The notes beneath the pieces are model-generated. The model ran no database searches. It was not told the DNA's origin and saw only the letters and a program-made list of their open reading frames with translations. From the NCBI GenBank assembly GCA_965651925.1, contig CBFGUK010000005.1, forward strand, positions 357 through 64,356: 64,000 nucleotides of DNA. The letters are read 5' to 3'. Both the position numbers and the translations under genes were made by a program. Below, piece after piece: positions 5,605 through 54,532 of the stretch. Position 1 is the first letter of the stretch; every line of letters starts with the position of its first letter. The stretch is from an uncultured bacterium (lineage in GTDB: Bacteria; Desulfobacterota; Binatia; HRBIN30; CADEER01).

Positions 5605-5736
5605 GGAGCAATTCGAACGCGCGCGCGATCCCTGGAGGGCGCTGCGGACGGACGTTTTCGTTCTCAGGAGGCGACGCGCTGCATGCGGGCGGGGACGCCC
5701 GCGGTTCGGGACACGTAAGCCGTGGATCCGGATCGA

Positions 5737-11285: not shown

Positions 11286-11415
11286 GCGCCCGGCCCCGGG
11301 GGGCGGAACGATTTGACAATTTGTGCGGGCGTCAAGAGAGTAGGGCATCACGCCGCTGAATAACTCCCACCGGGCCGTCGTCAGGCGCCCCACCCTGTCT
11401 GCAAAGTCGCATCCT

Positions 11416-40658: not shown

Positions 40659-40824
40659 CGGCGAGCCAGGTGAGCGACGGTCATCGTAGACGACGAAGCA
40701 GTGGGGGAATTCAGTTCGCCCCGCGCGGGCGCGGCCGCATTTAGTGTTGTGCTCCAGGCATGTCAAGACACGCGGGTGCGAATTGCCGCCGCGCAGGGGG
40801 TCTGGTAGCGTCGTCAGCCGCCCT

Positions 40825-43434
40825 ATGTCCGGCACTCGCCCGCGCCTCGTGCTGGTGGACGGCAGCAGCTACGTCTACCGTGCCTTCCACGCCCTGCCGC
40901 CGCTCACCGGTCCGCACGGCCTGCCGACGCACGCGGTGTACGGCTTCACCACCATGCTGCTGAAGCTGCTCACCGAGGCGCGTCCGGACTACGTCGTCGT
41001 CGTCTTCGATGCCGGGCGCCGGACGTTCCGCGACGAGCTGTATGCGCAGTACAAGGCACACCGGCCCGAGATGCCGAACGAGCTCGCCGCGCAGTTCCCG
41101 TACATACAGCGCGTCCTCGAGGCGCTGCGGATACCGGTGCTGCGCGTCGAGGGCGTCGAGGCCGATGATGTGATCGCCTCGCTGCTCGAGCGCTGCGCGG
41201 GGCCGGAGCTCGACTGCGTCGTCGTCACCGGCGACAAGGACCTCATGCAGCTCGTCCGTCCCGGCGTGCGGCTGTGGGACACGATGCGCGACAAGTGGAC
41301 CGACGTCGCCGCGGTCGAGGCGCGCTACGGCGTGCCGCCCGAGCGCATGGCCGACGTGCTGGCGCTGATGGGCGACCCGATCGACAACGTGCCGGGCGTC
41401 AGCGGGATTGGCGAAAAGACCGCGGTGGCGCTCGTGCAGGCGCTCGGCTCGGTCGAGGACGTCCTCGCCCAGCCGGATGCGGTGGCGCGCCTGCCGCTGC
41501 GCGGGGCGAAGAAGGTCGCCGAGCGGCTGGCGGCGGAGGCGGACACCGCGCGGCTGAGCAAGGCGCTGGTGCTCATCCGCCGCGACGTACCGATCACCTG
41601 CGCGCTCGAGGACCTGGCGGTCCAGCCGGTCGATCAAGCCGCGGTGCGCGCGCTGTTCACCGAGCTCGGCTTCCAGTCACTGCTGCGCCAGCTCACCGAC
41701 GAGGCGCCGCCGCTCGCCATCGAGCCGGTCACCGCGACCGACCCGAAGCAGGTGGCGGCGTGTTTTGCCCGGGCCCGCGCGGGCGGCTGGCTGGCACTCG
41801 CAACCGTGCCGGCCGCCGGGCCGCCCGCGACCACGCCGGCCGAGCAGCTGCTGCTCGTCGCCGGCGACGAGCCGCCGCTGCAGGTGGCACTCGATCGCGT
41901 GGCGCTCCGCGACGCGGCGCGCGCCGGTCTGGCCGACCCGACGCTCGAGGTCGTGGCGCACGACCTCAAGCGCGATCTGCTGGCGCTCGACGCCGCCGCG
42001 CTGCCGCTTGCGGCGCGCGGCTTCGACGTCGCGATCGCCGCCGCGCTCGTCGATGTCACCGCCGGCACGACGCTCGAGCGCCTCGGTGCCGACCTGCTCG
42101 GTATCAAGGTGCCGCCCTACCGCGACGGCGCTCCCGGGGCGGCGGCGGGCGTCACCCTGCTGCAGCCGCTCGCCGCGCAGCTGCGTGAGCGGATGCGCAT
42201 CGACGCACTGGCCGAGCTGTTCGACACGGTCGAGATGCCCCTGGTGCGCGTGCTGACGCGCATCGAGCAGCGCGGCATGCTGGTCGATGTCGCCGCGCTG
42301 CAGCGGCTCAGCGCGTCGTTCGGGGCGCGCATCGATGCCGCACTGCGCGACATCCACGCCATGGCCGGCGAGGAGTTCAACGTGCACTCGCCTCCGCAGC
42401 TGCGTGCCGTGCTCTTCGAGCGGCTGAAGTTGCCGACGCGTGGCGTGAAGCGCGGCAAGACCGGTCTGTCCACCGACGTCGACGTGCTGACCCGCCTCGC
42501 GGCGGAACACCCGCTGCCGGCGCGCATCCTCGAGTACCGCGCGCTCGCCAAGCTCAAATCGACGTACGTCGACGCGCTCCCGCTGGCGGTCAACCCGATC
42601 ACCGGGCGCCTGCACACGAGCCTCAACCAGACCGGCGCGGCGACGGGGCGGCTGAGCTCGAGCGAGCCGAACCTGCAGAACATCCCGGTGCGCGGCGAGG
42701 AGGGGCGCCGCATCCGCGAGGCGTTCATCGCCGAGCCGGGCAAGGTGCTGATCGCCGCCGACTACTCGCAGATCGAGCTGCGCGTGCTCGCCCACCTGTC
42801 GCGCGAGCCGGCGCTGATCGAGGCGTTCGTCAGCGAGCAGGACATTCATACCCGCACCGCCGCCGAGGTGTTCAACGTCCTGCCCGGCCTCGTCAGCGCC
42901 GATCAGCGGCGCGCCGCCAAGGTCATCAACTTCGGTATCCTCTACGGCATGGGCCCGCAGCGGCTCGCCAACGAGCTCGGCATCCCGATCCCCGAAGCCC
43001 AGGAGTACATCGCGCGCTATTTCGCACGCTACCCGAGCGTGCGCGGGTTCATGGAGGGCATCGTCGCCGAGGCCCGTGAGCGCGGCTTCGTCACCACGCT
43101 GCTCGGGCGCCGCCGTGCCGTGCCGGAGCTGCGCAGCCGTGAGCGGGGCGTCGCCCAGGCCGCCGCCCGCGTCGCCGCGAACACGCCGATCCAGGGCTCG
43201 GCCGCCGACCTGATCAAGCTCGCGATGGTTGGGGTCGACCGTCGCCTGAGCGAGGCGGGCGTCGATGGCGGGATGATCCTGCAGGTGCACGATGAGCTGC
43301 TGCTCGAGGTCGCCGAGGCGGATCGCGAGCGCGCCTGCGCCATGGTGCGCGAGGAGATGGAGGGGGTCGCCCGGCTCGCCGTGCCACTCAAGGTCGAGCT
43401 CGGCATCGGGTACACATGGGCGGAGGCACATTAA
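40825..43434 (+). CDS. polA: DNA polymerase I
   Basis: ATG 40825 inside ORF 40744..43434. The 5'-nuclease N-terminus is LVLVDGSSYVYRAFHALPPL. The polymerase domain has DYSQIELRVLAHLS, RRAAKVINFGILYGM and QVHDELLLEV. Confidence 0.95.
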   Translation: MSGTRPRLVLVDGSSYVYRAFHALPPLTGPHGLPTHAVYGFTTMLLKLLTEARPDYVVVVFDAGRRTFRDELYAQYKAHRPEMPNELAAQFPYIQRVLEALRIPVLRVEGVEADDVIASLLERCAGPELDCVVVTGDKDLMQLVRPGVRLWDTMRDKWTDVAAVEARYGVPPERMADVLALMGDPIDNVPGVSGIGEKTAVALVQALGSVEDVLAQPDAVARLPLRGAKKVAERLAAEADTARLSKALVLIRRDVPITCALEDLAVQPVDQAAVRALFTELGFQSLLRQLTDEAPPLAIEPVTATDPKQVAACFARARAGGWLALATVPAAGPPATTPAEQLLLVAGDEPPLQVALDRVALRDAARAGLADPTLEVVAHDLKRDLLALDAAALPLAARGFDVAIAAALVDVTAGTTLERLGADLLGIKVPPYRDGAPGAAAGVTLLQPLAAQLRERMRIDALAELFDTVEMPLVRVLTRIEQRGMLVDVAALQRLSASFGARIDAALRDIHAMAGEEFNVHSPPQLRAVLFERLKLPTRGVKRGKTGLSTDVDVLTRLAAEHPLPARILEYRALAKLKSTYVDALPLAVNPITGRLHTSLNQTGAATGRLSSSEPNLQNIPVRGEEGRRIREAFIAEPGKVLIAADYSQIELRVLAHLSREPALIEAFVSEQDIHTRTAAEVFNVLPGLVSADQRRAAKVINFGILYGMGPQRLANELGIPIPEAQEYIARYFARYPSVRGFMEGIVAEARERGFVTTLLGRRRAVPELRSRERGVAQAAARVAANTPIQGSAADLIKLAMVGVDRRLSEAGVDGGMILQVHDELLLEVAEADRERACAMVREEMEGVARLAVPLKVELGIGYTWAEAH

Positions 43435-45266: not shown

Positions 45267-45749
45267 TCAGGCCGACTCGCCGTCGGGCGACTCCTCCAGC
45301 ACCGTCACGGCGACGTCGGGGATCGACGGCAGGCGCACTCCGGCCGAGCGCGACAGGAGGCGAGAGAGCCAGGAGCGCTTCTCGACCACCAGGATCGCAC
45401 TCGCAATGTCGTGCGCCCGTACGACCCGGGCGCAGACGACATCGGGATCGCCTTCTTCGATCAGCGGCGTGAACGGCACGCCGCGCGCCGCCGCCTGTGT
45501 GCCGACCGCCGCGAGGATCGCCTCCGCCTGGCTGCGCTGTTCGCGCGTCAATACCTCGACGACGCGGTCGCTCACGTGCTCGCCCATGAACGCGCTGTCG
45601 AGGGACGCCGCGACGCGCGCCGTCTCCGCCGGATCGAGCAGCACCAGGCCGACGAGCGTGGCGCCGGTGCGCGCGGCGCGCTCCAGCGCCTCATCGCGCG
45701 CCAGACGCGGCTCGATGCCGGGCGGAATGATCAGCAGCACGTTCCCCAT
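45267..45749 (-). CDS. Universal stress protein (UspA)-like protein
   Basis: 160-aa ORF with an alpha/beta pattern: NVLLIIPPG..., LVGLVLLD..., GDPDVVCARVVRAHDIASAILVV. Assignment made by eye. Confidence 0.55.
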   Translation of the reverse strand: MGNVLLIIPPGIEPRLARDEALERAARTGATLVGLVLLDPAETARVAASLDSAFMGEHVSDRVVEVLTREQRSQAEAILAAVGTQAAARGVPFTPLIEEGDPDVVCARVVRAHDIASAILVVEKRSWLSRLLSRSAGVRLPSIPDVAVTVLEESPDGESA

Positions 45750-45762
45750 CGGACCGCCCTCC

Positions 45763-47202
45763 CTAGAGGCGCACGCCGATTACCGGCCAGAACCAGAACG
45801 CCATCAGGTTGAACACCACGAACGCGATCAGGTTCAGCAGCAGCCCGGGCCATGCCATGTCGCTCAGGCGCAGATAGCCGGAGGAGAACGCGATCGCGTT
45901 TGCCGGCGTGCCGATCGGCAGCATGAACGCCATGCCCGCCGGCACGGCGACGAGCGGCGCCGCGGCCCGGACGTCGAGACCGAACTGCTGCAACACCGCG
46001 ATGGCCATCGGCATGGTGATCGCGACTGCCGCGGAGTTGCTCATCACCTCGGTGAGCACCACGGTCGCGAACGCGATCATGATCACGACCGTCACCGGGC
46101 CGCCCGCCCACTGCGAGATGCTGTTGTCCGCCACCCAGGCGGCCGCCCCGGTGCTGTTCAGCGCCGAGCCGAGACAGATCGCGCCACCGTACATCAGGAT
46201 CAGCCCCCAGTTGACGTAGCGCTCGACATCCCGCCACTGCACGACGCCGAAGGCGAACAGCGCGACGACCGCGGCGAGCGCGATGTTCGCCAGCCCGAAC
46301 TCCTCGCCGAGCACGATCCACGCGAGCACGGTCACCACCATCGCGGTCGCGATCTGCAGCTCCTGCAGCGTCATCCGGCCGGTGCGCTGCAGCCGCTCCT
46401 CGACCGCGCGCGCCGCGGCCGCCGTGTCGTGCAGATCGATCGGGAAGAAGGTCCGCAGCACGGTCCAGCCGACCGCGAACAGCACGAGCGCGAGGGGCAC
46501 GTTCATCGCCGCCCATTCGGCGAACGAGTAGGACTCGCCGGTGACCTCCTTGAGAATGCCGATGGCCAGCGGCGCGCGCGCGCCGCCGAGCATCGTCGCG
46601 ACACCGCCGATCGTCGTGCCCCACGCCATCGCGAGGAAGAGCCCCTTGGCGTAGGTGCTGCGCCCGGGCGGCAGCCGCAGGGCGGCGACGATCTCGACGA
46701 TGATCGGGAAGGTCATCGCCGCGACCGCATGCTCGGACATGAAGAAGGACATCACCCCGTTGAGCAGGAAGACGCCGCCGAGCAGGGTCGATGGCCGGTG
46801 CCCGAAGCGCCGCAGGATGGTCAGCGCGAGCCGTGCCGACAGGCCGGATTTCATCATCGCCGCCGCGAGGATGAACGCGCCGAGGATGAAGAACACCGCC
46901 TCGTTGCCGAAGTTCGCGTACGCCTGCTTCGCGGTCATCGCGCCGGTGAGCGGCAGCAGGATGATCGCGAGCAGGCCGGTGATCATGATCGGCAGGAGCT
47001 CGAAGACCCAGTAGAAGATGCACAGCCCGAACACGGCGAGCGCGTTCTGCGCCGCGGTATCGAGCCCGTCCGGCTGCGGCAGCGAGCGGATCAGGGAGAA
47101 CACGCCGAGGCCGGCGAGCAGCATGACCAGCCGCCGGCTGCGCGCGAGGACGATGATCCACAGGGGCCGGGTGTCGATCTCGACGCGCGGGGCCGCGGGC
47201 AT
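45763..47202 (-). CDS. DASS / SLC13 family anion:sodium symporter
   Basis: 479-aa polytopic ORF. Contains FYWVFELLPIMITGLLAIILLPLTG and two SNSA/TPAN-type hairpin motifs (EVMSNSAAVAI, LPIGTPANAIAF). Confidence 0.85.
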   Translation of the reverse strand: MPAAPRVEIDTRPLWIIVLARSRRLVMLLAGLGVFSLIRSLPQPDGLDTAAQNALAVFGLCIFYWVFELLPIMITGLLAIILLPLTGAMTAKQAYANFGNEAVFFILGAFILAAAMMKSGLSARLALTILRRFGHRPSTLLGGVFLLNGVMSFFMSEHAVAAMTFPIIVEIVAALRLPPGRSTYAKGLFLAMAWGTTIGGVATMLGGARAPLAIGILKEVTGESYSFAEWAAMNVPLALVLFAVGWTVLRTFFPIDLHDTAAAARAVEERLQRTGRMTLQELQIATAMVVTVLAWIVLGEEFGLANIALAAVVALFAFGVVQWRDVERYVNWGLILMYGGAICLGSALNSTGAAAWVADNSISQWAGGPVTVVIMIAFATVVLTEVMSNSAAVAITMPMAIAVLQQFGLDVRAAAPLVAVPAGMAFMLPIGTPANAIAFSSGYLRLSDMAWPGLLLNLIAFVVFNLMAFWFWPVIGVRL

Positions 47203-47327
47203 TGGGCGTGTGAGCTAGCAGGAAAGGACCGGGGCGGGAAACGGAACCGCCGCGTGTGGCGGATGCCTCGTGGACTCGGAACGGATGCGATCGTGGCGAG
47301 TCGCGTCAGCCGCGGATGCCGCGACGC

Positions 47328-48551
47328 TCACAGGTGCGACGAATCGAACGAGTCACTGACCTGGCGCACGCGCAGCCGGCGGCGCAATCGCGACAGATTG
47401 CGCGCCGCGAGCGCGCCGAGCCGCGAGCGATAGAACTGGCCCATGCCGATCGACGCCCGCGCGTCGTCGCCGGCGAAGAAGCGCGCCTCGATCGGCGTCA
47501 CGGCGAAGCTCAGGTCGCGCACCCAGTGCATGTTGATGCGGGCATCGCGCACGGCACGGAACAGATGCGCGAAGATCGGCGCGACGGCCGCGGCATCCGG
47601 CAGCGGATGGTCGCGCAGGCGGGTGTCGACGAGCGGGCGGAACAGCGACAGCACCGGCAGCACGCCGAGACCGACGAGCGTGTCGATGCCGGCGATCGTC
47701 GATTCCGGCGCCTCGAGGCCGACGATCAGATCGCTCCACACCGTGCCGCTCGGGAACACCGTCGCGGCATGCGCGAGCGCCTCGTAGTACCGGTCGCGGC
47801 CGACCTCCCGTACCCGACCCGGGCACAGCTCGGCGAGCCGCTGCGGATCGTGGATCTCGACCGCGTAGCTGAGCGCGTCGACGCCCATGGCGTACGTGCG
47901 GTCGATCCAGAAGTCGTCGCGCGGCGGCTGCAGCTGCACGGCGACGAGCGTGTCGAAGTGGCGCTTGATGGCGCGGACGTACGGCTCGAGGAACTCGACG
48001 CCGGCATCGTCGCCGGCATGCTGGCCGATGTGGAGATAGACGAATTCGACCGCGCCCTCGGCGAACGCCGCGCGCACGGTGTCGACCACGTCGGCCACCG
48101 CCAGCGGCTCGACCCGATCGGGGGCGCGCGACGGCAGGTCGCAGAAGTCGCACGCGAGCCCGCGCGGTACGAACGCACAGCCGGCCGCCGGATTGATCGC
48201 CAGATAGCCGCCGTACGCGGAGCCGACGCGCCACATCGGCAGACCCGAGCGGGTCGTCTGGCGGTAGAAGCGCGGCGGCGGCACGATGCGCACCTCGCAG
48301 CGCTGCGCCTCGCTGGCGAGCACGAAGGTCGCGCCCTCGGCGCGCAGCTCGTACGGCGAGGCGTCGGTGAAGGCCTGGCCCGCCGGCACGCTGACCCAGA
48401 CGTCCTCGGGCAGCACGATCTCGAGATTGTGTGCCGTGTAGTCCTGGTCGACGGTCAGGGCAGCGATGTCCGGATGATCGCAGACCCCGGCGCCGAGGCG
48501 CGCGCCGCGGATCGCGAGGTCGAACTTGAGGAATCCCGGATTGGGGGTCAT
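47328..48551 (-). CDS. Uncharacterised protein, possibly a radical-SAM-like Fe-S enzyme with non-canonical CX8CX2C motif
   Basis: ATG 48551 overlaps the upstream TGA (ATGA), inside ORF 47328..49067. 407 aa with a beta-rich N-terminal segment of about 95 aa, then YLAINPAAGCAFVPRGLACDFCDLP. The rest looks like an alpha/beta barrel by eye. It is clearly coding; its function is unknown. Confidence 0.5.
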   Translation of the reverse strand: MTPNPGFLKFDLAIRGARLGAGVCDHPDIAALTVDQDYTAHNLEIVLPEDVWVSVPAGQAFTDASPYELRAEGATFVLASEAQRCEVRIVPPPRFYRQTTRSGLPMWRVGSAYGGYLAINPAAGCAFVPRGLACDFCDLPSRAPDRVEPLAVADVVDTVRAAFAEGAVEFVYLHIGQHAGDDAGVEFLEPYVRAIKRHFDTLVAVQLQPPRDDFWIDRTYAMGVDALSYAVEIHDPQRLAELCPGRVREVGRDRYYEALAHAATVFPSGTVWSDLIVGLEAPESTIAGIDTLVGLGVLPVLSLFRPLVDTRLRDHPLPDAAAVAPIFAHLFRAVRDARINMHWVRDLSFAVTPIEARFFAGDDARASIGMGQFYRSRLGALAARNLSRLRRRLRVRQVSDSFDSSHL

Positions 48552-49219
48552 GCGGCGGGCGGTCCCGGATTGCAGAGCGGGCACGCCGGCCGCGACGGCG
48601 CCATGACCGGCGTCAGCGCCGCGGTCGCGGCATCGAAGCCGAACGTCATCGGGCGTCGCGCGCCGGGCCGATCGAGCGCGATGCCGACCGCCGCGAACGC
48701 CAGCAACGAGCCGAGCACGGTCGCGCTGAGGACCGCAAACGCCTCGTCGCCGCGATCCGGAGTCGCGGGACGGGACACCGACGCACAGAGCGCGCAGGGA
48801 CCGGTGCCGTCGTCGACGTGCAGCCAGCCGCCCGTCGCCGTGACGGCAGCGGCGACCAGCGGCACGCGGGCGGCTCGCATGCTGGCGGCGAGCGTCTCGA
48901 GTGCGGCCGGGTCGAGCCCGGCGGCGAGTGCCGCGGCGATCGAGGCCGCCGCAGCGCCCGCCGGTACCGCATCCACCGGTTGCAGGTCGATCGTCGAGTT
49001 CAGGGCGCGCAGCGAGGCAACGAGCGCGCCGGCATCGGTTGCCAGCCGGAGGTGGCCGATGCCGCATCCGGCGAGCGCGCGGCCGGTCACCTGCGCCAGC
49101 GTGCCGGCGCCGGCGAGCACGACCGTCGCCTCCGCGAGTCGCTCCTGACCGGTGCCGCCGATCTCGGGCAGGATGATCTGGCGGCTGTACCGCTCGATCT
49201 GCGCGTCGGTGAGCGCCAT
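48548..49219 (-). CDS. Degenerate ThiF/MoeB (E1-like) family protein retaining the N-terminal RYSRQ motif
   Basis: ATG 49219 inside ORF 48548..50017; 223 aa. Contains MALTDAQIERYSRQIILPEIGGTGQERLAEATVVLAGAGTLAQ and two CxxC pairs (CALC, CPLC). The SNLxRQ and D-x-T-D-N adenylation motifs are not recognisable. Confidence 0.65.
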   Translation of the reverse strand: MALTDAQIERYSRQIILPEIGGTGQERLAEATVVLAGAGTLAQVTGRALAGCGIGHLRLATDAGALVASLRALNSTIDLQPVDAVPAGAAAASIAAALAAGLDPAALETLAASMRAARVPLVAAAVTATGGWLHVDDGTGPCALCASVSRPATPDRGDEAFAVLSATVLGSLLAFAAVGIALDRPGARRPMTFGFDAATAALTPVMAPSRPACPLCNPGPPAA

Positions 49220-49227
49220 GCGCGTCG

Positions 49228-50214
49228 TCAGCCGCGTGGATGCCGCTGCTGCCACTCGCGCCACCCGGCCCAGAGATTCGTGCTCAGGTAGCGGTCGCCG
49301 AAATCGGGGAAGATCATCACCACCACGCCCGTCGCGAGGTCGCGCGCCACCCGACGCGCCGCGTACAGCGCCGCTCCCGAGGACTGGCCGACGATCAGGC
49401 CGAAGCGCGCCCCGAGCTCGTAGACGAGATCGTACGCGACGTCGGTAGGGACCGGGATTTTCGCGTCGAGCTCTTCCTCCTTGTAGATGCCGGGCACGAT
49501 CGAGCTCGCCATGTGCTTGAGCCCCTCGAGCCCGTGCAGCGCATCGTCCGGTTCGGCGGCGATCACCTGCACGCGCGGATTGCGCTGCTTGAGATAGCGG
49601 CCGGTGCCCATGATCGTGCCGCCGGTGCCGATGCCGGCGACGAAGTGCGTGACGCGGCCGCCGGTCGCCTCCCAGATTTCGGGTCCGGTACTCTCGAAGT
49701 GCGCCTGCGGATTCAGCGGGTTGAAGTACTGATCGGGCTTGAAGTAGCGCTCCGGCTGCTCGGCGAGCAGCGTGCGGCACAGGAGAATCGCGCCGTCGGA
49801 GCCTTCGAGGCCGCTGCTGTAGACGATCTCGGCGCCGAACGCGCTGATGATCCGCTTGCGCTCCTCGCTGACGTTCGCCGGCATCACCAGCGTCACCGGA
49901 TAGCCGAGCGCCGCGCCGATCATCGCCAGCGCAATGCCGGTGTTGCCCGAGGTCGAATCGATGATCGTCTTCCCGGGCCGCAGTGCGCCGGTGGCGAGGC
50001 CGTGGCGCACCATCCACAGCGCCGCGCGATCCTTCACCGAGCCGCCGGGATTGAATCCTTCGAGCTTCGCGTACAGCCGCACGCTCGACGCGAGATCGGG
50101 CGCGATCGCCGAGATGTCGAGCAGCGGCGTGCGGCCGACCAGGTCGAGAATCGACCGGGCGCGGCCGCCGGGGTCGGCGGGCGACACCGTCGCGGTGGCG
50201 CCGGGAACGGGCAT
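49228..50214 (-). CDS. Cysteine synthase B (CysM)-like PLP-dependent sulfhydrylase
   Basis: ORF 49228..50235 (TTG); ATG 50214 is preferred. Contains GRTPLLDI, KLEGFNPGGSVKDRAA (PLP lysine), DSTSGNTGIALA and GIGTGGTIMG. Confidence 0.85.
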   Translation of the reverse strand: MPVPGATATVSPADPGGRARSILDLVGRTPLLDISAIAPDLASSVRLYAKLEGFNPGGSVKDRAALWMVRHGLATGALRPGKTIIDSTSGNTGIALAMIGAALGYPVTLVMPANVSEERKRIISAFGAEIVYSSGLEGSDGAILLCRTLLAEQPERYFKPDQYFNPLNPQAHFESTGPEIWEATGGRVTHFVAGIGTGGTIMGTGRYLKQRNPRVQVIAAEPDDALHGLEGLKHMASSIVPGIYKEEELDAKIPVPTDVAYDLVYELGARFGLIVGQSSGAALYAARRVARDLATGVVVMIFPDFGDRYLSTNLWAGWREWQQRHPRG

Positions 50215-50221
50215 GGACCGC

Positions 50222-50497
50222 TCAGCCGCCCGCAATCGCCGGGACGATCGACAGCTCGTCGCCGTCCTTGACCGCGGTCTCGAGGTTGCTGAGAAAGCGG
50301 ATGTCGTCGCCGTTCAGGTAGATGTTGACGAAGCGGCGCACGCGGCCCTCGTCGTCGCAGAGCCGTTCCTTGATGCCGGCAAACTGGCGCTCGAGGTCGT
50401 CGACGACGGCGGCCACGGTGGAGCCGGCGGCGCCGACCTCCTCGGCACCGCCGGTGAAGCGACGCAGCGGCGTCGGGATGCGAACTTTTGCGGGCAT
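50222..50497 (-). CDS. MoaD/ThiS/CysO-like sulfur-carrier protein ending in Gly-Gly
   Basis: ATG 50497 with GGGGAGGA 8 nt upstream, inside ORF 50222..50530. 91 aa: MPAKVRIPTPLRRFTGGAEEVGAAG...NGDDIRFLSNLETAVKDGDELSIVPAIAGG followed directly by the stop. Confidence 0.8.
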   Translation of the reverse strand: MPAKVRIPTPLRRFTGGAEEVGAAGSTVAAVVDDLERQFAGIKERLCDDEGRVRRFVNIYLNGDDIRFLSNLETAVKDGDELSIVPAIAGG

Positions 50498-50526
50498 GCT
50501 GACTGTCCTCCCCTCGGTGGAACTGC

Positions 50527-51789
50527 TCACTCGGCCGCGGCGGCGCGGCGCGCCGCCGGAACGAGCGAGTCGTAAAGCCTGTCGAAATCCTGCAGCCGCG
50601 CGTCGATGACCGTCGGCTGCGCGACGCTCGCGCGCACCGCCTCGAGTGTCTTGTAGCCGTTGCCGGTGATGCAGATGACGATCGATTCGTCGCGCGGAAT
50701 GCGGCCCTGATCAATCAGTTTTTTCGTCACGGCGACGGTGGTGCCGCCGGCCGGCTCGGTGAAAATGCCCTCGGTGCGCGCCAGCAGGTGGAGCGCCTCG
50801 ACGATCTCGGCGTCGCTGGCCGCCTCGCCCCAGCCGCCGCTGCCCCGCACGGTACGCAGCACGTCGTAGCCGTCGGCGGGGTTGCCAATCGCGATCGAGC
50901 TCGCGATCGTGTCGGGCTTCACCGGCTCGATGACGTCGGTGCCGCGATGCAGCGCCTGTACGACCGGCGCGCAGCCCGCTGCCTGCGCCGTGTGGATCGC
51001 CGGCGACGGCGCGTCGAGCAGGCCGACGAGGCGCAGCTCGTCGAATGCCCGGGCGATCTTCGGCAGGAGCGTGCCGCCGGCGGTGGGCACGACGATGTGC
51101 CGCGGCGGCGTCCAGCCGAGCTGCTCGGCGATCTCGAAGCCGCAGGTCTTCGCACCTTCGGTGTAGTACGGGCGCAGATTGATGTTGACGAACGCCCAGC
51201 GGTACTTGTCCGCGATCTCGCTGCACAGGCGGTTGACGTCGTCGTAGTTGCCGCGCACCGCCACGGTGTGCGGCCCGTAGATGGCCGAGCCGAGGATCTT
51301 TCCCTGCTCGAGGTCGTCGGGGATGAAGATGACGCAGGGGAGCCCGGCTCGCGCCGCGTGCGCCGAGACGCTGTTGGCGAGGTTGCCGGTGGAGGCGCAC
51401 GACACGGTGGTGAAGTCGAGCTCCATCGCGGCGGAGATGGCGACCGAGACGACGCGGTCCTTGTACGAGAACGTCGGGTGGTTGACCGAGTCGTCCTTGA
51501 CCCAGACCTCGCGCGCTCCCAGCGCCGCGGCGAGCCGCTCGGCTCTCACCAGCGGCGTGCAGCCCGAGTGCGGACCGACGCGCGGTTCGCGCGTCACGGG
51601 CAGCAGCTCGCGATAGCGCCAGAGATTGCGCGGCCGGGCGGCGATCGCCGCGCGCGTCAGCGCGCGCGCGATCGCCGGGTAATCATAGACCACCTCCAGC
51701 GGTCCGAAGCACTGTTCGCAGACGTGCAGCGGCTCGCGCGCGTATTCGGCACCGCACTCGCGGCAGCGCAGCCCCTCGACGTGGCCCAT
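50527..51789 (-). CDS. Threonine-synthase-like PLP enzyme with N-terminal zinc ribbon
   Basis: ATG 51789 with AGGGGA upstream. Contains LRCRECGAEYAREPLHVCEQCFG, HPTFSYKDRVVSV (PLP lysine), SCASTGNLANS and NINLRPYYTEG. Confidence 0.85.
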   Translation of the reverse strand: MGHVEGLRCRECGAEYAREPLHVCEQCFGPLEVVYDYPAIARALTRAAIAARPRNLWRYRELLPVTREPRVGPHSGCTPLVRAERLAAALGAREVWVKDDSVNHPTFSYKDRVVSVAISAAMELDFTTVSCASTGNLANSVSAHAARAGLPCVIFIPDDLEQGKILGSAIYGPHTVAVRGNYDDVNRLCSEIADKYRWAFVNINLRPYYTEGAKTCGFEIAEQLGWTPPRHIVVPTAGGTLLPKIARAFDELRLVGLLDAPSPAIHTAQAAGCAPVVQALHRGTDVIEPVKPDTIASSIAIGNPADGYDVLRTVRGSGGWGEAASDAEIVEALHLLARTEGIFTEPAGGTTVAVTKKLIDQGRIPRDESIVICITGNGYKTLEAVRASVAQPTVIDARLQDFDRLYDSLVPAARRAAAAE

Positions 51790-51801
51790 CAACTGTCCCC
51801 T

Positions 51802-52548
51802 CTATCGCGCTGGTCCCGCGGCATCCAGCCGCCCGGCGGCCGGGCGGCCGGCGCACGCCGGGCAGCGCGGATTGCGCGCCAGGCGCACCTGGCGCCAGCG
51901 GCCGGAGAGCAGATCGACGGTCAGCAGGCGATCGGTCAGCGGGCGGCCGCGACCGGTGAGCTGCTTGATGGCTTCGCCGGCCTGCACCGCACCGATGACG
52001 CCGGCAATGGCACCGATGACCCCGGCGGTCTGGCACGTCGGGAGGCCATCGGCGGGCGGCGCCTCGGGAAACAGGCAGCGATAGCAGGCGCTGGTGCCCG
52101 GGACGACGGTCAGCGTCTGGCCGAGGAAACCGAGGATGCCGGCATGCGAGTACGGCCGCCCGAACGCCACCGCGCCGTCGTTGATCAGGAACTTGGTCGC
52201 CACGTCGTCGGTGGCGTCGATGACGAAGTCGCTGGTGAACACGTCCGCCAGGTTGGCAGCGGTGAGGCGTTCCACCCGCGCGATGAGCTCCAGACCGGGG
52301 TGCGCGTCACGCAGCGCGGAGGCCGCGGCGAGCACCTTCGGCAGGCCGAGGTCGTCCTCGCGGTAGAGCGGCTGCCGTGGCAGGTTCGAGAGCTCGACGA
52401 CATCGGAGTCGAGCAGGATCAGCGTGCCGACGCCGGCGGCGGCGAGCACCGGCGCGGCGGCACAGCCCAGCGCACCCATGCCGATCACCGCGATGCGCGC
52501 GTCCGCCAGGTCGCGCCCGGCGGCGTTCCGTTTCCCATCGGCAGCCAT
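51802..52548 (-). CDS. ThiF/MoeB-type E1-like adenylyltransferase lacking the N-terminal RYxRQ segment and lacking a rhodanese domain
   Basis: ATG 52548; the longer ORF to 52605 would run through the riboswitch terminator. Contains ARIAVIGMGALGCAAAPVLAAAGVG, LLDSDVVELSNLPRQ, FVIDATDDVATKFLIND and the CYRC...CPAC zinc motifs. Confidence 0.85.
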   Translation of the reverse strand: MAADGKRNAAGRDLADARIAVIGMGALGCAAAPVLAAAGVGTLILLDSDVVELSNLPRQPLYREDDLGLPKVLAAASALRDAHPGLELIARVERLTAANLADVFTSDFVIDATDDVATKFLINDGAVAFGRPYSHAGILGFLGQTLTVVPGTSACYRCLFPEAPPADGLPTCQTAGVIGAIAGVIGAVQAGEAIKQLTGRGRPLTDRLLTVDLLSGRWRQVRLARNPRCPACAGRPAAGRLDAAGPAR

Positions 52549-52564
52549 GCTCGCTCGCGTCAGA

Positions 52565-52594
52565 CAAAAAAGCCCCGCCCGGGAGGGCGGGGCC
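52565..52594 (-). terminator. Intrinsic terminator forming the expression platform of the SAM-I riboswitch
   Basis: The minus strand reads GGCCCCGCCC-TCCC-GGGCGGGGC-TTTTTTG, 17 nt upstream of the thiF-like ATG. Confidence 0.8.
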
Positions 52595-52613
52595 AAGAAC
52601 GGCACGTTCTCGC

Positions 52614-52723
52614 CTTATCTCCCCGGGCCTGTTCCCGGCTGGATTTAGCACCGGCGCCCCGGCGGACCCGGAAACCGGTTGCTGTGGCGTCACAGGGCCA
52701 GTCCCTCAGCCACTCTGGATAAG
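52614..52723 (-). promoter_or_regulatory. SAM-I (S-box) riboswitch aptamer
   Basis: The minus strand reads CTTATCCAGAGTGGCTGAGGGACTGGCCCTGTGACGCCACAGCAACCGG...GCCGGTGCTAAATCCAGCCGGGAACAGGCCCGGGGAGATAAG. This matches the conserved S-box core (CUUAUCnAGAG-GG-GAGGGAcUGGCCC-GA-CC-GCAACC ... GGUGCUAAnUCC ... AGAUaAG), with P1 formed by CTTATC/GATAAG. Confidence 0.9.
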
Positions 52724-52754
52724 GATGTTGGTCGTCAGTCTGCGGACGGGTGGA

Positions 52755-52784
52755 ACGCTACGCCAGCGTCAGCGCGCGAGTCAA
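52755..52784 (-). promoter_or_regulatory. Candidate sigma-70 promoter for the riboswitch operon (TTGACT-N18-TAGCGT)
   Basis: Minus strand: TTGACT at 52784..52779 and TAGCGT at 52760..52755, about 30 nt upstream of the aptamer. Motif resemblance only. Confidence 0.3.
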
Positions 52785-52804: not shown

Positions 52805-53767
52805 TCAATAGCGCGCGCCACCGGCCCCGTACGGGCCGGTGCGGCCGAACGGACCCGCGCCGCCGGGCAGTCCGAGCCCGCCGCCGGCCGGCGTCGTGCC
52901 GCGTCGCTGAGTCTGCGGCAGCTGGCGCGGCGGGATCTGGGCCACGGCGATGTCACGCGTCCGACCGGTGGTGCTGCGCAGCAGGACGAGCGGATCCCCC
53001 GACGGCGCTGGGTGCTCCTTCGTCAGGCGATCGAGTGCCTCCTCGGCCTCGCGTGCCGCTTCATGCGTCGGGTGATGGTAGGTCACGGCCGTGTAGGCGA
53101 GCACGGCCGTATCGTAGTTCTCCTGACGCTCGTAGATGCCGGCGAGGCGGAGCAGCGCCTCGCCGGAGACGTCGGTTTCCGGGAAGCGGTTGACGAGGTC
53201 GAGATAGCGGATCGCGGCGGCTTCGAGCTTGCCGTGCCGCTCGTAGTAGCGACCGACGTCGAGCTCGTGCGTCGCCAGGGTCTCACGAGTGCGCGCCAGG
53301 CGATCGCGTGCCAGCACCGCATACGGGCTGGTCGGGAACTGCTGAATCACCGCCTGGTAGTAGGCGTGCGCATTCTGCGACGCGCTCTGGTCGCGGTCCG
53401 ACGGCCGCATCTGCTGCTCGGCGCACTGGCCGAGCAGATAGCCAACCATCGGCAGGGACGGGCTGGTCGGATGCCGGCGCTGGAAGTCTGTGAACGACGC
53501 CGTCGCTTCCGGGCAGAGATTGTTCATGTACTGGGCGACGCCGATGTGCAGTTCCGCCTGCTCGCTCTGCTCGCTGAACGGATACTCGTCGAGCAAGGCG
53601 CGGTACGTCTCCACCGCCTGCGTGTAGGCGCCGAGGCGCATGTGCTCGGTGGCGAGCGCATGGTACTCGCCGGCGGCCACCGGCTGCTTCGGTCCGCAGC
53701 CGCTGGTGACGAGACCGAGGACGAGCGGCGCGCCGAGCAGCAGCGCGCGAAGTGCAGCAGGATGCAT
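52805..53767 (-). CDS. bamD: Outer membrane protein assembly factor BamD (TPR lipoprotein)
   Basis: ATG 53767 inside ORF 52805..53977. Lipoprotein signal MHPAALRALLLGAPLVLGLVTSGC. TPR-like repeats are present (YPFSEQSEQAELHIGVAQY, FPTSPYAVLARDRLA, HELDVGRYYERHGKLEAA), followed by a Gly/Pro-rich tail. Confidence 0.8.
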   Translation of the reverse strand: MHPAALRALLLGAPLVLGLVTSGCGPKQPVAAGEYHALATEHMRLGAYTQAVETYRALLDEYPFSEQSEQAELHIGVAQYMNNLCPEATASFTDFQRRHPTSPSLPMVGYLLGQCAEQQMRPSDRDQSASQNAHAYYQAVIQQFPTSPYAVLARDRLARTRETLATHELDVGRYYERHGKLEAAAIRYLDLVNRFPETDVSGEALLRLAGIYERQENYDTAVLAYTAVTYHHPTHEAAREAEEALDRLTKEHPAPSGDPLVLLRSTTGRTRDIAVAQIPPRQLPQTQRRGTTPAGGGLGLPGGAGPFGRTGPYGAGGARY

Positions 53768-53905
53768 GCGCCGACTATGCAGGACGCGGCCCGCGGTCGC
53801 AAAGCCCACCGGCGCGCACCGCGGCCGACGCTCGCCTGCGGGCGGCGCGCGGCGACGCCATTGCGCCGGCGCACCGCCTTTTGGTAGCCGGGCGCGGAAC
53901 CCCGC

Positions 53906-54532
53906 ATGGCCGGCCTCTCGCTTCCCGTCTCGCGCGCGGCGCTGCTGCTCGTCGAGCTGCAGAACGACATCGTGCACGCATCAAACATCGGCGGGCCGGG
54001 ATTCCGTGGCGTGCTCGCCGAACAGGTCCGCACCCGCGGCGTGCTCGAGCGGGCGGCCGCCCTGGCGGCGGCGGCGCGCGCCGCGCGGGTGCCGGTGGGC
54101 TACATCAACTACGCGCGCAAGCCGGACTTCCCGCGGCCGCGCACGCTCCTGCACCGGCGTACCGGCACGACGCCGACGCTGATCGAGGGCACCTGGGGGG
54201 CGGAGACGCACGAGGCGGTGGCGCCGACGGCGGCCGATTTCGTCTTCACGCGCTGCATCGGCATCGACGGCTCGTACGGCACACAGCTCTACCCGGTGCT
54301 GCGCATGCTCGGACGCGATGTGCTGCTCGTCGGCGGCGTGTCGACGACCCTCGCCGTCGAGGGACTGGTGCGTGCGTCGGTCAACCGCGGGTTCGAGCTG
54401 TTCGTCATCGAGGACTGCTGCGCCGGCGCGCCACCTGCGTGGCACGAGTTCTCGATCACCAACGTCCTGCCGCTGCTGGCGACGGTCACCTCGACCGAGG
54501 CCGTGCTCGCGGCGCTGCGGGAGGCCGCGTGA
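53906..54532 (+). CDS. Isochorismatase / cysteine hydrolase family protein
   Basis: 208-aa ORF. Contains ALLLVELQNDIV and LLVGGVSTTLAVEGLVRASVNRGFELFVIEDCCA. Confidence 0.8.
   Translation: MAGLSLPVSRAALLLVELQNDIVHASNIGGPGFRGVLAEQVRTRGVLERAAALAAAARAARVPVGYINYARKPDFPRPRTLLHRRTGTTPTLIEGTWGAETHEAVAPTAADFVFTRCIGIDGSYGTQLYPVLRMLGRDVLLVGGVSTTLAVEGLVRASVNRGFELFVIEDCCAGAPPAWHEFSITNVLPLLATVTSTEAVLAALREAA

Follow-up and report, generated by a model that had tools for sequence, protein, structure and literature searches.

On the minus strand of the 64-kb window (the whole stretch of DNA that was analysed), six tightly packed genes lie downstream of a SAM-I (S-box) riboswitch and an intrinsic terminator. 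They encode, in order, an E1 (g1), a ThrC-like protein (g2), a sulfur carrier (g3), a CysM-like protein (g4), a degenerate E1 (g5) and a radical-SAM-like protein (g6). Apart from the radical-SAM reading of g6, these families had been assigned in an earlier note made from the sequence alone, and every assignment held in profile searches. The aptamer, described there as a textbook S-box, was searched with RF00162 and gave a match of 82.5 bits over the full model (1-108; 52612..52725, minus strand), where 44.4 is the gathering score (E = 6e-18). No other Rfam family matched in the window. The terminator of the expression platform (52565..52594, minus strand), also claimed earlier, is a GC-rich hairpin with a U-run and lies some 17 nt upstream of where g1 starts; its 10-bp stem (52594-52571) has 9 GC pairs and is followed by TTTTTT. 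In the MFE fold, a four-way-junction aptamer is followed by the terminator hairpin. The SAM-I aptamer is kept (80-96 bits) upstream of homologous operons in loci L003, L020, L033, L053, L062 and L073, and the operons that it precedes differ in architecture.

The junctions read from the sequence were those given before: 29 nt (g2-g3), 7 nt (g3-g4), 8 nt (g4-g5) and -4 nt (g5-g6), the start of g6 overlapping the stop of g5 (ATGA). The first junction (g1-g2) has the claimed length of 9 nt if g2 starts from the TTG at 51792, and a length of 12 nt if it starts from the ATG at 51789. Coding GC3 in the own frame is 0.88-0.92 for all six genes. Neither a rhodanese domain nor a JAB gene was found in the operon, as had been stated, and tblastn gave no JAB match anywhere in the window. 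TusA, sulfite reductase, CysH and Sat are likewise absent from the 64 kb. These absences count against the pathway proposed below, since product release and the sulfur source lack local genes.

The extent of six genes has to be revised. Because a DASS symporter gene and a Usp-like gene come after g6 in nearly all relatives, the operon probably consists of eight genes. The first of these, g7 (45763..47202, minus strand), starts 125 nt downstream of g6 and encodes a DASS family anion symporter (PF00939, 222 bits; TIGR00785, 281 bits against a cut-off of 198.6), probably an importer of sulfate or a related sulfur oxyanion. It likely shares a transcription unit with g6, although the 125-nt gap includes a weak hairpin, which counts against one unit. 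A gap of 13 nt separates the DASS gene from g8 (45267..45749, minus strand), which lies downstream and encodes a small Usp-like protein. The window copy has no Pfam match; its homologs come after the DASS gene in 60 loci, and those of L004 and L053 match PF00582 (Usp).

The sulfur carrier and the two PLP enzymes

The product of g3 (50222..50497, minus strand) is a CysO/MetO-type sulfur carrier of the ThiS/MoaD fold (PF02597, ThiS family, 61.7 bits) with a C-terminal Gly-Gly; in the PDB, the entry that matches it best is M. tuberculosis CysO (3DWG chain C, E = 1e-25). The PLP enzyme encoded by g2 (50527..51789, minus strand) is a MetM-like ThrC homolog (PALP, 242 bits; TIGR00260 thrC, 270 bits against 167; NF006050, 302.3 against 303). 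A CxxC..CxxC Zn-ribbon lies at its N-terminus, and solved ThrC structures align to it only from about residue 57. In Nonomuraea, a SAM riboswitch is followed by a g2 homolog (51% identity) and then by a homolog of the carrier gene (45% identity). The second PLP enzyme, g4 (49228..50214, minus strand), is CysM-like and belongs to the cysteine synthase B family (PALP, 234 bits; TIGR01138 cysM, 367 bits). Its PDB matches are Salmonella/E. coli CysM (235 bits) and M. tuberculosis CysM (204 bits).

From homology and context, g2 is predicted to be a homocysteine synthase using O-phosphohomoserine, and g4 a cysteine synthase dependent on the carrier thiocarboxylate. Against these assignments, g2 scores above the cut-off of TIGR00260, a generic thrC model, and g4 falls under the cysM equivalog cut-off of 394. 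The two could then be an ordinary threonine synthase and an ordinary CysM acting on free sulfide or thiosulfate, with the carrier and E1 serving, for example, cofactor or tRNA thiolation. The lack of a JAB hydrolase in the window and the closeness of g4 to enterobacterial CysM, a user of sulfide or thiosulfate, would agree with such a role. It is nonetheless very improbable, since a SAM riboswitch is unexpected for a threonine synthase, the carrier is of the CysO type, the gene spacing is 7-29 nt, and JAB is located between the CysM-like and E1 genes in relatives. Moreover, the riboswitch, ThrC-like gene and carrier gene occur together in an actinomycete, and an S. albulus metM-metO unit with a SAM riboswitch has been shown to make homocysteine, as the earlier note had correctly stated for Streptomyces. 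Three observations support the reading given there, a SAM-controlled synthesis of sulfur amino acids by way of a protein thiocarboxylate: the CysO-type carrier, the Nonomuraea and metM-metO units, and the linkage to sulfate assimilation in many genomes. The pathway is most likely a carrier-thiocarboxylate route.

The complete and the degenerate E1

By its residues, the g1 product (E1a; 51802..52548, minus strand) is a catalytically complete ThiF/MoeB-type adenylyltransferase without a rhodanese domain (PF00899, ThiF, 226 bits). It aligns to MoeB 28-248 and ThiF 24-247 and keeps D62, R73, K86, D130, both CxxC pairs and the Cys187 equivalent, but lacks the N-terminal RYxRQ arginine-finger helix. 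The g5 product (E1b; 48548..49219, minus strand) has a ThiF match over residues 11-60 only and aligns well only to MoeB 4-62. It retains the N-terminal ERYSRQIILPE helix, with the MoeB Arg14 equivalent, and two CxxC pairs, whereas its nucleotide-binding and catalytic residues are lost. The ORF of g5 is intact, with a coding GC3 of 0.88.

The same division was seen in the relatives. All E1a copies keep D62, R73, K86, D130, the Zn cysteines and C187 and miss RYxRQ; all E1b copies keep R-Y-x-R-Q, with R14 in every copy, and lose the nucleotide-binding and catalytic residues. In the MoeB 4-30 region, E1b copies share a mean pairwise identity of 0.60 and E1a copies one of 0.08; in the MoeB 62-130 region, the values are 0.11 for E1b and 0.46 for E1a. 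Among the 27 genomes of Binatia and Myxococcota sampled for E1b conservation, the N-terminal 27 residues are 60% identical as against 11% for the core. E1b genes range in size from about 130 to 340 codons, depending on the genome. Every locus with a degenerate E1b also has a second, complete E1 (24/24); where the adjacent E1 is complete, it stands alone, without a second E1, in 23 of 26 loci.

An obligate heterodimeric E1 is suggested, because the degenerate copy co-occurs with an active copy in all 24 loci and the helix is found only in g5. The arginines concerned, MoeB Arg14 and ThiF Arg11, exert their effect from the adjacent subunit, and complementary degeneration has a precedent in yeast Tcd1-Tcd2. 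These results suggest that E1b, predicted to be non-catalytic, is a selectively conserved partner subunit of E1a, and it is fairly probable that g1 and g5 form an asymmetric heterodimeric E1. The earlier description of g5 as a second, degenerate E1-like protein added to the operon was right as to the degeneracy; the residue, identity and co-occurrence data indicate a conserved partner and not a mere addition.

Alternatively, g5 could be the decaying remnant, now without a role, of an ancestral E1 replaced by a homodimeric, MoeB/ThiF-like g1. Its eroded core and variable length would fit decay, lineages in which one complete E1 occupies this place would show the ancestral state, and in both MoeB and ThiF the arginine finger has been reported to be non-essential for activity. 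A remnant of this kind is, however, unlikely to have kept an intact ORF with normal coding GC3, an N-terminus so much better conserved than its core, R14 in every copy, an unfailing association with a complete E1 and a stop codon overlapping the g6 start, and E1a lacks exactly the helix that g5 keeps. As the arginine finger is reportedly non-essential in MoeB and ThiF, E1a might act alone and E1b be kept for another role, such as binding of g6.

The radical-SAM-fold protein and the transporter

The last of the six genes, g6 (47328..48551, minus strand), encodes a variant radical-SAM-fold protein with the motif C125-x8-C134-x2-C137. It scored 166 bits with NF045502 (variant_rSAM, cut-off 125) and 24.1 bits with PF04055, below the gathering score of 29.5. 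Foldseek neighbours of its AF2 model (pLDDT 83.7) are BioB, HydE, ThiH, LipA and PylB, all distant (TM about 0.45-0.55), and the best PDB sequence match of the family profile is ThiH (E = 1.3e-4). The N-terminal domain had no match among solved structures. Across 84 loci, virtually no variation occurs in C125, C134, C137, C243 or the LRRxLRV tail. Some 40 residues inside the barrel are also invariant, and the SAM-site-like motifs SYNLEIFD and IVGLEP are conserved in the family. In nearly all loci with enough sequence, the g6 homolog is flanked by an E1 gene and a DASS gene, even in a branch only 33% identical. An rSAM-DASS fusion is present in one lineage (as in P0166), on at least 5 contigs. 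In Myxococcota loci, the g6 homolog lies next to JAB, and a single JAB-rSAM fusion was seen on a 3-kb contig. The protein had been noted as an uncharacterised Cys-motif protein; the CX8CX2C motif stands, and the profile, model and neighbourhood now place it as a radical-SAM-fold protein linked to a transporter.

Its neighbours tentatively point to a role of g6 at the interface of sulfur uptake and loading. The motivation for this role is weak because no known thiocarboxylate step requires radical chemistry, and related class 4e clusters function although they lack a protein of this sort. The PF04055 score below threshold and the unmatched N-terminal domain also count against it. A doubtful possibility is that g6 is instead a true radical-SAM catalyst of a reaction that is not part of the canonical pathway, for instance a modification or a lyase step, acting on the carrier or a carrier-bound amino acid, in the manner of ThiH with ThiF, ThiS and ThiG. 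The ThiH match, the conserved SAM-site-like motifs, the adjacency and fusion to JAB, and the substrates of the nearest folds, which are amino acids or protein-bound, would be consistent with catalysis, as would Myxococcota clusters that keep E1, carrier, JAB, rSAM and DASS without adjacent PLP genes. However, the JAB fusion was seen once, on a short contig, the structural matches are distant, neither a substrate nor a product can be put forward, and the most constant partner is the transporter, whose fusion is well supported.

This constancy could also mean that g6 acts as a regulator, perhaps jointly with Usp and with the NIL protein of relatives, sensing SAM or redox state through an Fe-S/SAM site and gating the DASS importer, the E1 or both. 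In all lineages it is either fused to the transporter or next to it, its basic C-terminal helix LRRxLRV is conserved at the fusion join to the membrane domain, regulatory-type ligand-binding domains (NIL and Usp) co-travel with it, and L053 has no vacant canonical pathway step. The NIL domain of MetN, which mediates methionine trans-inhibition of import, offers an analogy. We know of no precedent, however, for a radical-SAM fold as a pure sensor; the barrel interior is invariant as in enzymes, and SAM regulation is already exerted at the RNA level. A regulatory g6 is therefore quite improbable, and the uptake and loading role is retained below.

Proposed pathway and comparison with known systems

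We propose, with a probability of about 0.65 for the whole account, that this SAM-repressed eight-gene operon takes in sulfur and makes homocysteine and cysteine via a protein thiocarboxylate. When SAM is abundant, the aptamer would fold, the terminator would form and transcription would halt before g1. When SAM is scarce, g3 would be adenylated at its C-terminal Gly-Gly by the asymmetric E1, to which E1a would supply the ATP-binding and catalytic residues and the dead E1b the arginine-finger helix. The acyl-adenylate would be converted to carrier-COSH by reduced sulfur, derived from the anion imported by g7 and presumably reduced by enzymes encoded elsewhere in the genome; in relatives, the clusters themselves encode Sat, CysH, a small sulfite reductase and TusA. 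With carrier-COSH, g2 would convert O-phosphohomoserine to homocysteine, and g4 would convert O-phosphoserine (or O-acetylserine) to cysteine. Any carrier-amino-acid adduct would be hydrolysed by JAB, which is encoded in many relatives' clusters and not in this window. In the weakest step, g6 would bind a [4Fe-4S] cluster and serve as an accessory where the DASS importer meets the E1, helping either to deliver sulfur or to control its delivery.

A survey of gene neighbourhoods, recommended in the earlier note, found related clusters in about 110 species genomes. Genes added among them include those for ATP sulfurylase, APS reductase, sulfite reductase, TusA and JAB (Sat in 38 loci, CysH in 30, TusA in 22 and Sir in 20). 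At L053, a SAM riboswitch is followed by genes for a MetM-like protein, small sulfite reductase, TusA, carrier, NIL, CysM-like protein, JAB, E1, rSAM-like protein, DASS, Usp, PAPS/APS reductase and ATP sulfurylase. NIL and Usp, ligand-binding domains of regulatory type, accompany the cluster. The operon is a reduced member of this family. The earlier note knew of no account of its six-gene, riboswitch-controlled composition. In the searchable literature, the radical-SAM/DASS/split-E1 combination was nowhere described. The composition does not stand alone, though, and Iyer et al. (2006) had outlined the general cluster type as neighbourhood class "4e".

The riboswitch, ThrC-like gene and carrier match Streptomyces metM-metO, and the carrier with the CysM-like enzyme resembles mycobacterial CysO-CysM. 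The related clusters with sulfate-assimilation genes, TusA and JAB resemble class 4e, from which the present operon differs in having g6. The proposed pairing of g1 with g5 can be likened to eukaryotic UBA3/NAE1 and SAE2/SAE1 and to yeast Tcd2/Tcd1. The core pathway thus appears to be of a known kind, and the split E1 and the radical-SAM protein paired with DASS appear to be new.

The SAM-I riboswitch and the predicted sulfur-transfer core

An S-box aptamer followed by an intrinsic terminator had been claimed in the earlier note for the leader of a minus-strand operon. The Rfam family RF00162 matched this leader over the full length of the model (52612-52725, minus strand; model 1-108 of 108, 82.5 bits against a gathering score of 44.4, E = 6e-18) and was the only Rfam family matched in the whole 64-kb window. 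The terminator was found directly downstream of the aptamer (52594-52565, minus strand), as a 10-bp hairpin with nine GC pairs followed by a T-run, about 17 nt before the first gene, g1. In the minimum free energy fold the leader formed a four-way-junction aptamer and then the terminator hairpin; when sub-sequences of the leader were folded, an alternative anti-terminator pairing was weakly resolved at best. A sigma-70 promoter scan gave no match in the 71% GC DNA of the window.

Six minus-strand genes follow the leader. They are packed as tightly as had been described, with junctions of 9 or 12, 29, 7, 8 and -4 nt, the start of g6 overlapping the stop of g5, and GC3 is 0.88-0.92 in each of them. 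The family assignments of all six products were borne out: ThiF for g1, PALP/ThrC for g2, ThiS for g3, PALP/CysM-like for g4, a partial ThiF for g5 and variant_rSAM for g6. Next on the same strand lie a DASS anion symporter gene, g7 (45763-47202; PF00939 222 bits, TIGR00785 281 bits against a cut-off of 198.6), and, downstream of it, a small Usp-like gene, g8 (45267-45749). The order in the window is BamD, riboswitch, E1a (g1), MetM-like, carrier, CysM-like, E1b (g5), radical-SAM-like, DASS and Usp. Neither a rhodanese domain nor a JAB protein was found in the operon, as the earlier note had stated, and a search of the 64 kb gave no NIL, JAB, TusA, Sir, CysH or Sat.

Between g6 and the DASS gene the window has a gap of 125 nt (47203-47327), compared with 369 nt in the nearest relative (locus L001) and 6-70 nt in the majority of genomes. 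A weak hairpin resembling a terminator lies in this gap (47262-47247, minus strand), so the coupling of the transporter to the operon may be partly lost in the lineage of the window. The flanks are syntenic with two related loci, L004 and L005: a BamD (YfiO/TPR) gene lies upstream (52805-53977, minus strand), and DNA polymerase I, ABC transporter and DUF4340 genes downstream (40690-43434, plus strand). This synteny puts the window in a Binatia-type genome. Elsewhere in the window, positions 11344-15726 of the plus strand hold a very long ORF (about 1,460 codons) whose coding signature is strong (GC3 0.91).

Only for a few organisms has a protein-thiocarboxylate route to cysteine or homocysteine been characterised. 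The carrier g3 (PF02597, 61.7 bits) ends in ...AIAGG, and its best PDB match is M. tuberculosis CysO (3DWG chain C, E = 1e-25). The CysM-like g4 scored 367 bits with TIGR01138 (cysM; cut-off 394) and 335.5 bits with TIGR01136 (cysKM; cut-off 344). Its PDB matches were strong, with 235 bits to the enterobacterial (E. coli) CysM compared with 204 bits to M. tuberculosis CysM. In the alignment, the phosphate/anion-binding position R210 of E. coli CysM, which we take to be equivalent to R220 of the M. tuberculosis enzyme, is a lysine in g4. The product of g2 is a PALP/ThrC enzyme with an extra N-terminal CxxC..CxxC ribbon; it matches the NCBIfam threonine-synthase models, NCBIfam offering no other model for such enzymes.

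The likeness of g2 to MetM was drawn through Nonomuraea gerenzanensis as a proxy for S. albulus. In the Nonomuraea locus L086 (NZ_LT559118.1), a SAM-I riboswitch (4834-4975, 68.7 bits) is followed by homologs of g2 (5001-6209; 51% identical, aligned from residue 1) and g3 (6249-6521; 45% identical). The record, of 11.85 Mb and filed as "plasmid I" with 10 annotated features, is likely a mislabelled chromosome. According to the published account, S. albulus MetM converts O-phosphohomoserine to homocysteine via the MetO thiocarboxylate, and metM has a SAM riboswitch upstream (Hasebe et al. 2024, AEM 90:e01247-24); the Streptomyces route that the earlier note named matches this account. Since the riboswitch, ThrC-like gene and carrier of Nonomuraea reproduce the metM-metO arrangement, we read g2/g3 as a putative MetM/MetO-type pair and g3/g4 as a putative CysO/CysM-type pair, in which one carrier would serve both PLP enzymes. 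The CysO match, the CysM matches and the Nonomuraea unit all argue for this double role, as had been proposed. In annotation, g2 should not be named threonine synthase. Assignments to molybdenum cofactor synthesis (MoaA-type) and to thiamin synthesis (ThiH/ThiG) were rejected, the former because no MoaE or MoaA and the latter because no ThiG was present, and both because of the SAM riboswitch and the sulfate-assimilation context. Thus, the observation made in the earlier note is confirmed and its interpretation supported, with functions that we infer from sequence, structure prediction and gene context.

A proposed split E1: g1 and g5

Two E1-like proteins are encoded in the operon. The product of g1 has a full ThiF domain, the alignment of which begins at residue 28 of MoeB and residue 24 of ThiF. 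Together with all its orthologs (E1a) it keeps the glycine-rich loop, the equivalents of MoeB D62, R73, K86 and D130, and the Zn-binding CxxC pairs. The RYxRQ helix, which carries the arginine finger (MoeB R14/ThiF R11), was found neither in g1 nor upstream of its alignment start, and is missing in 23 of the 24 E1a orthologs taken from loci where E1a is paired with a degenerate E1b. In g5 the ThiF match is confined to residues 11-60, and a convincing alignment with MoeB covers 4-62 only, including ERYSRQ. In g5, and likewise in every degenerate E1b, the equivalents of D62, R73, K86 and D130 have been replaced or lost, while R-Y-x-R-Q is kept; g5 is thus the degenerate second E1-like protein that had been described. 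In some genomes E1b has shrunk to about 130 codons.

The same complementary pattern was seen in Binatia and in Myxococcota where two E1 genes occur, and it is visible in the conservation of the two proteins (27 E1b and 24 E1a sequences). Over MoeB 4-30 the mean pairwise identity is 0.60 for E1b and 0.08 for E1a; over MoeB 62-130 it is 0.11 for E1b and 0.46 for E1a. In all loci where a single E1 lies beside the radical-SAM-like gene, motif and catalytic set are both present in every case. Among loci with at least 4.5 kb of upstream sequence, a degenerate E1b was accompanied by a second, complete E1 in 24 of 24, and a complete adjacent E1 stood without a second E1 in 23 of 26. Two complete copies were found in three loci (L020, L021 and L023). 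A duplication of the adjacent E1 agrees with the identity matrix, which is compatible with one or two origins of E1a (Binatia, Myxococcota).

NAE1 and SAE1 are degenerate partner subunits that supply an arginine finger in eukaryotic E1 enzymes. Arg14 of MoeB and Arg11 of ThiF are arginine fingers donated by the neighbouring subunit, and yeast Tcd1-Tcd2 is a heterodimer with complementary degeneration of this kind; the account of Tcd1-Tcd2 also reports the finger to be dispensable in MoeB and ThiF. Our reading is that the E1 gene was duplicated and that complementary losses followed, so that g1 and g5 are predicted to form an obligate asymmetric E1. The related genomes form a series, from one complete E1, through two complete E1s, to a presumably active E1 with an arginine-finger helper. 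This series could serve as a simple bacterial model of a possible origin of the asymmetric E1s of the ubiquitin system. If the prediction is true, g1/g5 would have repeated, independently, the division into an active and an inactive subunit that is seen in eukaryotic E1s. In annotation, g5 should not be dismissed as a pseudogene.

The cluster family and the radical-SAM-like protein g6

The neighbourhood survey proposed in the earlier note was carried out by searching species-representative genomes with a 12-sequence alignment of the g6 family, the broader first alignment (A1) being too diverse. It gave 110 relatives, and loci were retrieved for 80 of these. The cluster family thus spans about 110 species, with members in Binatia, Myxococcota, Thermodesulfobacteriota and Nitrospirota and in unclassified "Deltaproteobacteria" MAGs; the architecture of the window is shared by, and typical of, Binatia. 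An E1-like gene precedes the g6 homolog in every locus mapped. Where a locus extends far enough downstream, a DASS gene almost always comes next, mostly together with the Usp gene, and the E1/g6/DASS neighbourhood is kept even in a branch only 33% identical to g6. RF00162 was also matched in five further loci of differing architecture (80-96 bits), and in about 30 loci a motif scan placed the riboswitch ahead of the first gene.

A larger, "type-B" cluster is exemplified by locus L053. Its order is LysR, SAM-I riboswitch, MetM-like, a small NIR_SIR/Fer4 sulfite reductase, TusA, carrier, NIL, CysM-like, JAB, one full-length E1, radical-SAM-like, DASS, Usp, PAPS/APS reductase and ATP sulfurylase. 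Across the loci, Sat was counted in 38, CysH in 30, Sir in 20, TusA in 22, JAB in 34 and NIL in 41. In most architectures of the family, the whole path from sulfur import to cysteine and homocysteine would lie under one SAM riboswitch.

Several variations accompany this core. MetN and MA1822, a methanogen protein of homocysteine synthesis, are known to contain NIL domains. A free-standing NIL gene (PF09383, 79-84 aa) follows the CysM-like or the carrier gene in the 41 loci (such as L001/L006 417-662; L003 6975-7208; L004 9174-9428; L053 7355-7594), among them the closest relative of the window. An extra gene of this kind comes after the CysM-like gene in many close relatives; there is none in the window, where the g4-g5 gap (49219-49228) is 8 nt. 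In some clusters the main CysM-like gene has a divergent paralog beside it, with 38-39% identity to g4 (L033 6596-7501; L036 6696-7598; L073 6823-7740; L023 8173-9090). In L004, a 4.77-Mb Binatia contig, a sulfatase gene (PF00884; 13332-15155) lies directly after the Usp gene, which may be a further link to sulfur acquisition or a coincidence. The Myxococcota clusters L061, L069, L079, L080 and L083 consist of E1a, carrier, short E1b, JAB, radical-SAM-like and DASS genes. No adjacent MetM-like gene was found in these five, a distant CysM-like match lying upstream in L083 only, and no SAM riboswitch was matched by Rfam in the two Myxococcota loci scanned, L061 and L069. The Myxococcota module may therefore have another end product or another regulation.

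The product of g6 was checked as a radical-SAM protein. It remained below the gathering score of PF04055 (24.1 bits against 29.5), but passed NF045502 (variant_rSAM; 166 bits, cut-off 125). Its spacing is CX8CX2C instead of CX3CX2C. With TIGR04043 (MSMEG_0568) it scored 116.8 bits against a cut-off of 303.7 and so is not a member of that family. The AF2 model (pLDDT 83.7, pTM 0.85) has a radical-SAM barrel. The nearest solved folds are BioB, HydE, ThiH, RlmN, MqnE, LipA and PylB, all distant; the matches to BioB, HydE, ThiH and LipA had probability 1.0, 13-18% identity and a TM of about 0.45-0.55. A single-sequence search of g6 against the PDB gave no match, and with the family profile the best match, a weak one, was ThiH. 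For the N-terminal domain of about 110 residues, modelled separately (pLDDT 81.8), no Foldseek match fell below E = 0.6. Some motifs of g6 resemble the "NHNLE" and "IVGLGE" elements of BioB/LipA. C125, C134 and C137 make up a variant of the three-cysteine motif for a SAM-binding [4Fe-4S] cluster, which in radical-SAM proteins follows beta-1 of a partial TIM barrel. In 84 loci these three, C243 as a fourth cysteine and some 40 further positions hardly vary, and the family also conserves a basic tail, LRRxLRV, at the C-terminus.

Some family proteins depart from this pattern. In P0134, P0137 and P0148 (alignment A1), one or all of the cluster cysteines are missing while the other motifs and the tail are kept; these could be pseudo-enzymes or sequencing artefacts. 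A cluster-independent function was rejected because the cysteines are essentially invariant in the 84 genomic loci. P0164 was set aside, as it looks like a frameshift artefact. Four fusions (P0225, P0247, P0254, P0255) join an N-terminal ATP-grasp domain to a distant CX8CX2C radical-SAM protein of 26-30% identity, which points to a separate branch of the variant radical-SAM family. These fusions and the extensions of P0168 and P0191 are uninformative on g6, since they belong to more distant branches, including MSMEG_0568-like ones. A JAB-radical-SAM fusion (P0142) is weak evidence: it was seen once, on a contig of 3 kb, and wherever JAB occurs in a genomic locus it has an ORF of its own. The fusion of the radical-SAM-like protein with DASS is real in one lineage, comprising four proteins of 881 aa and seen on at least five contigs.

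Gene context is the sole functional clue to g6: the flanking E1 and DASS genes, the overlap with g5 and the DASS fusion. In L053 all canonical steps from sulfate to cysteine and homocysteine have genes, and g6 would therefore provide an unrecognised step, control at an interface, or a side reaction on the carrier. We rank first a role at the interface between uptake and carrier loading, with a probability of about 0.3. We know of no radical or Fe-S-dependent step between the import of a sulfur anion and the loading of a ubiquitin-like carrier. A bolder proposal, in which g6 would be a new obligatory radical-SAM step from the DASS importer to carrier loading and g1/g5 the first prokaryotic obligate heterodimeric E1, we consider on the whole unlikely. 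Once worked out, the role of g6 might add a step so far missing from sulfur assimilation or expose a new point of its control.

Comparison with known systems

The six-gene set had been put forward as undescribed. This holds for the split E1, as no earlier account of such a bacterial E1 came up in the literature searched, a search that cannot prove absence. It does not hold for the pathway class and the riboswitch-metM-metO unit; both have been published before, and the finding is therefore not new in category. The novelty lies in two features of a family of clusters from about 110 species, most of them uncultured: the split E1 and the conserved radical-SAM/DASS/Usp module.

To our knowledge, neither a riboswitch nor a MetM, radical-SAM or DASS partner belongs to the mycobacterial CysO-CysM-MoeZ-Mec system. 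The operon resembles it in having a CysO-type carrier beside a CysM-like PLP enzyme, for which thiocarboxylate-dependent cysteine synthesis is predicted here. In M. tuberculosis, however, MoeZ has a rhodanese domain and the JAB hydrolase Mec is in the operon, whereas the operon studied here lacks both. With MetM-MetO of S. albulus (which act with MoeZ and Mec), the operon shares a SAM riboswitch followed by a ThrC homolog and a ThiS/MoaD-type carrier, and the predicted conversion of O-phosphohomoserine with the carrier thiocarboxylate to homocysteine. It differs in that the E1 is encoded in the operon, lacks a rhodanese domain and is split into E1a and E1b, in that the carrier would be common to a CysM-like enzyme, in the attached radical-SAM-like, DASS and Usp-like genes, and in having no Mec/JAB.

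Among the closest described gene clusters are those of the sulfur-assimilation class "4e" (Iyer, Burroughs & Aravind 2006), including HcyS-HcyF-HcyD-MetY of Wolinella succinogenes, in which the cluster feeds a sulfur amino-acid synthase; the operon core is thus of a known kind. A ThiS/MoaD-like carrier, JAB, a rhodanese-less E1, SirA/TusA, PAPS reductase, ATP sulfurylase and sulfite reductase are combined in class 4e, and all of them are present in the L053-like type-B relatives. In class 4e, ABC sulfate transporters and O-acetylhomoserine sulfhydrylase take the places held here by DASS with the radical-SAM-like and Usp genes and by the MetM-like and CysM-like enzymes; NIL and the SAM-I riboswitch are additions of the present clusters. 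Radical SAM and a split E1 are absent from the 2006 account.

For the E1 pair, the likeness is to NAE1-UBA3, SAE1-SAE2 and Tcd1-Tcd2, each with one adenylating subunit and a degenerate paralog giving the N-terminal arginine finger. Unlike these, g1/g5 are bacterial and minimal, without catalytic-cysteine or UFD domains, and the heterodimer is a prediction from complementary sequence loss and co-occurrence. For g6, ThiF-ThiS-ThiG-ThiH provides the parallel of a radical-SAM TIM-barrel enzyme encoded with an E1 and a ThiS-fold carrier. In contrast to ThiH, BioB, LipA, HydE and PylB, g6 has CX8CX2C and not CX3CX2C, an unmatched N-terminal domain and a basic C-terminal tail, and no ThiG accompanies it. 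The CX8CX2C motif is shared with the MSMEG_0568 family (Nit1C), NF045502 and the RadicalSAM.org megaclusters 4-6-x, which are listed there without a stated function. Plasmid-borne homologs about 30% identical to g6 carry the MSMEG_0568 family annotation, and the MSMEG_0568-like P0168 and P0191 lack the LRRxLRV tail of g6. MSMEG_0568 belongs to a nitrilase cluster, whereas the context of g6 is sulfur assimilation.
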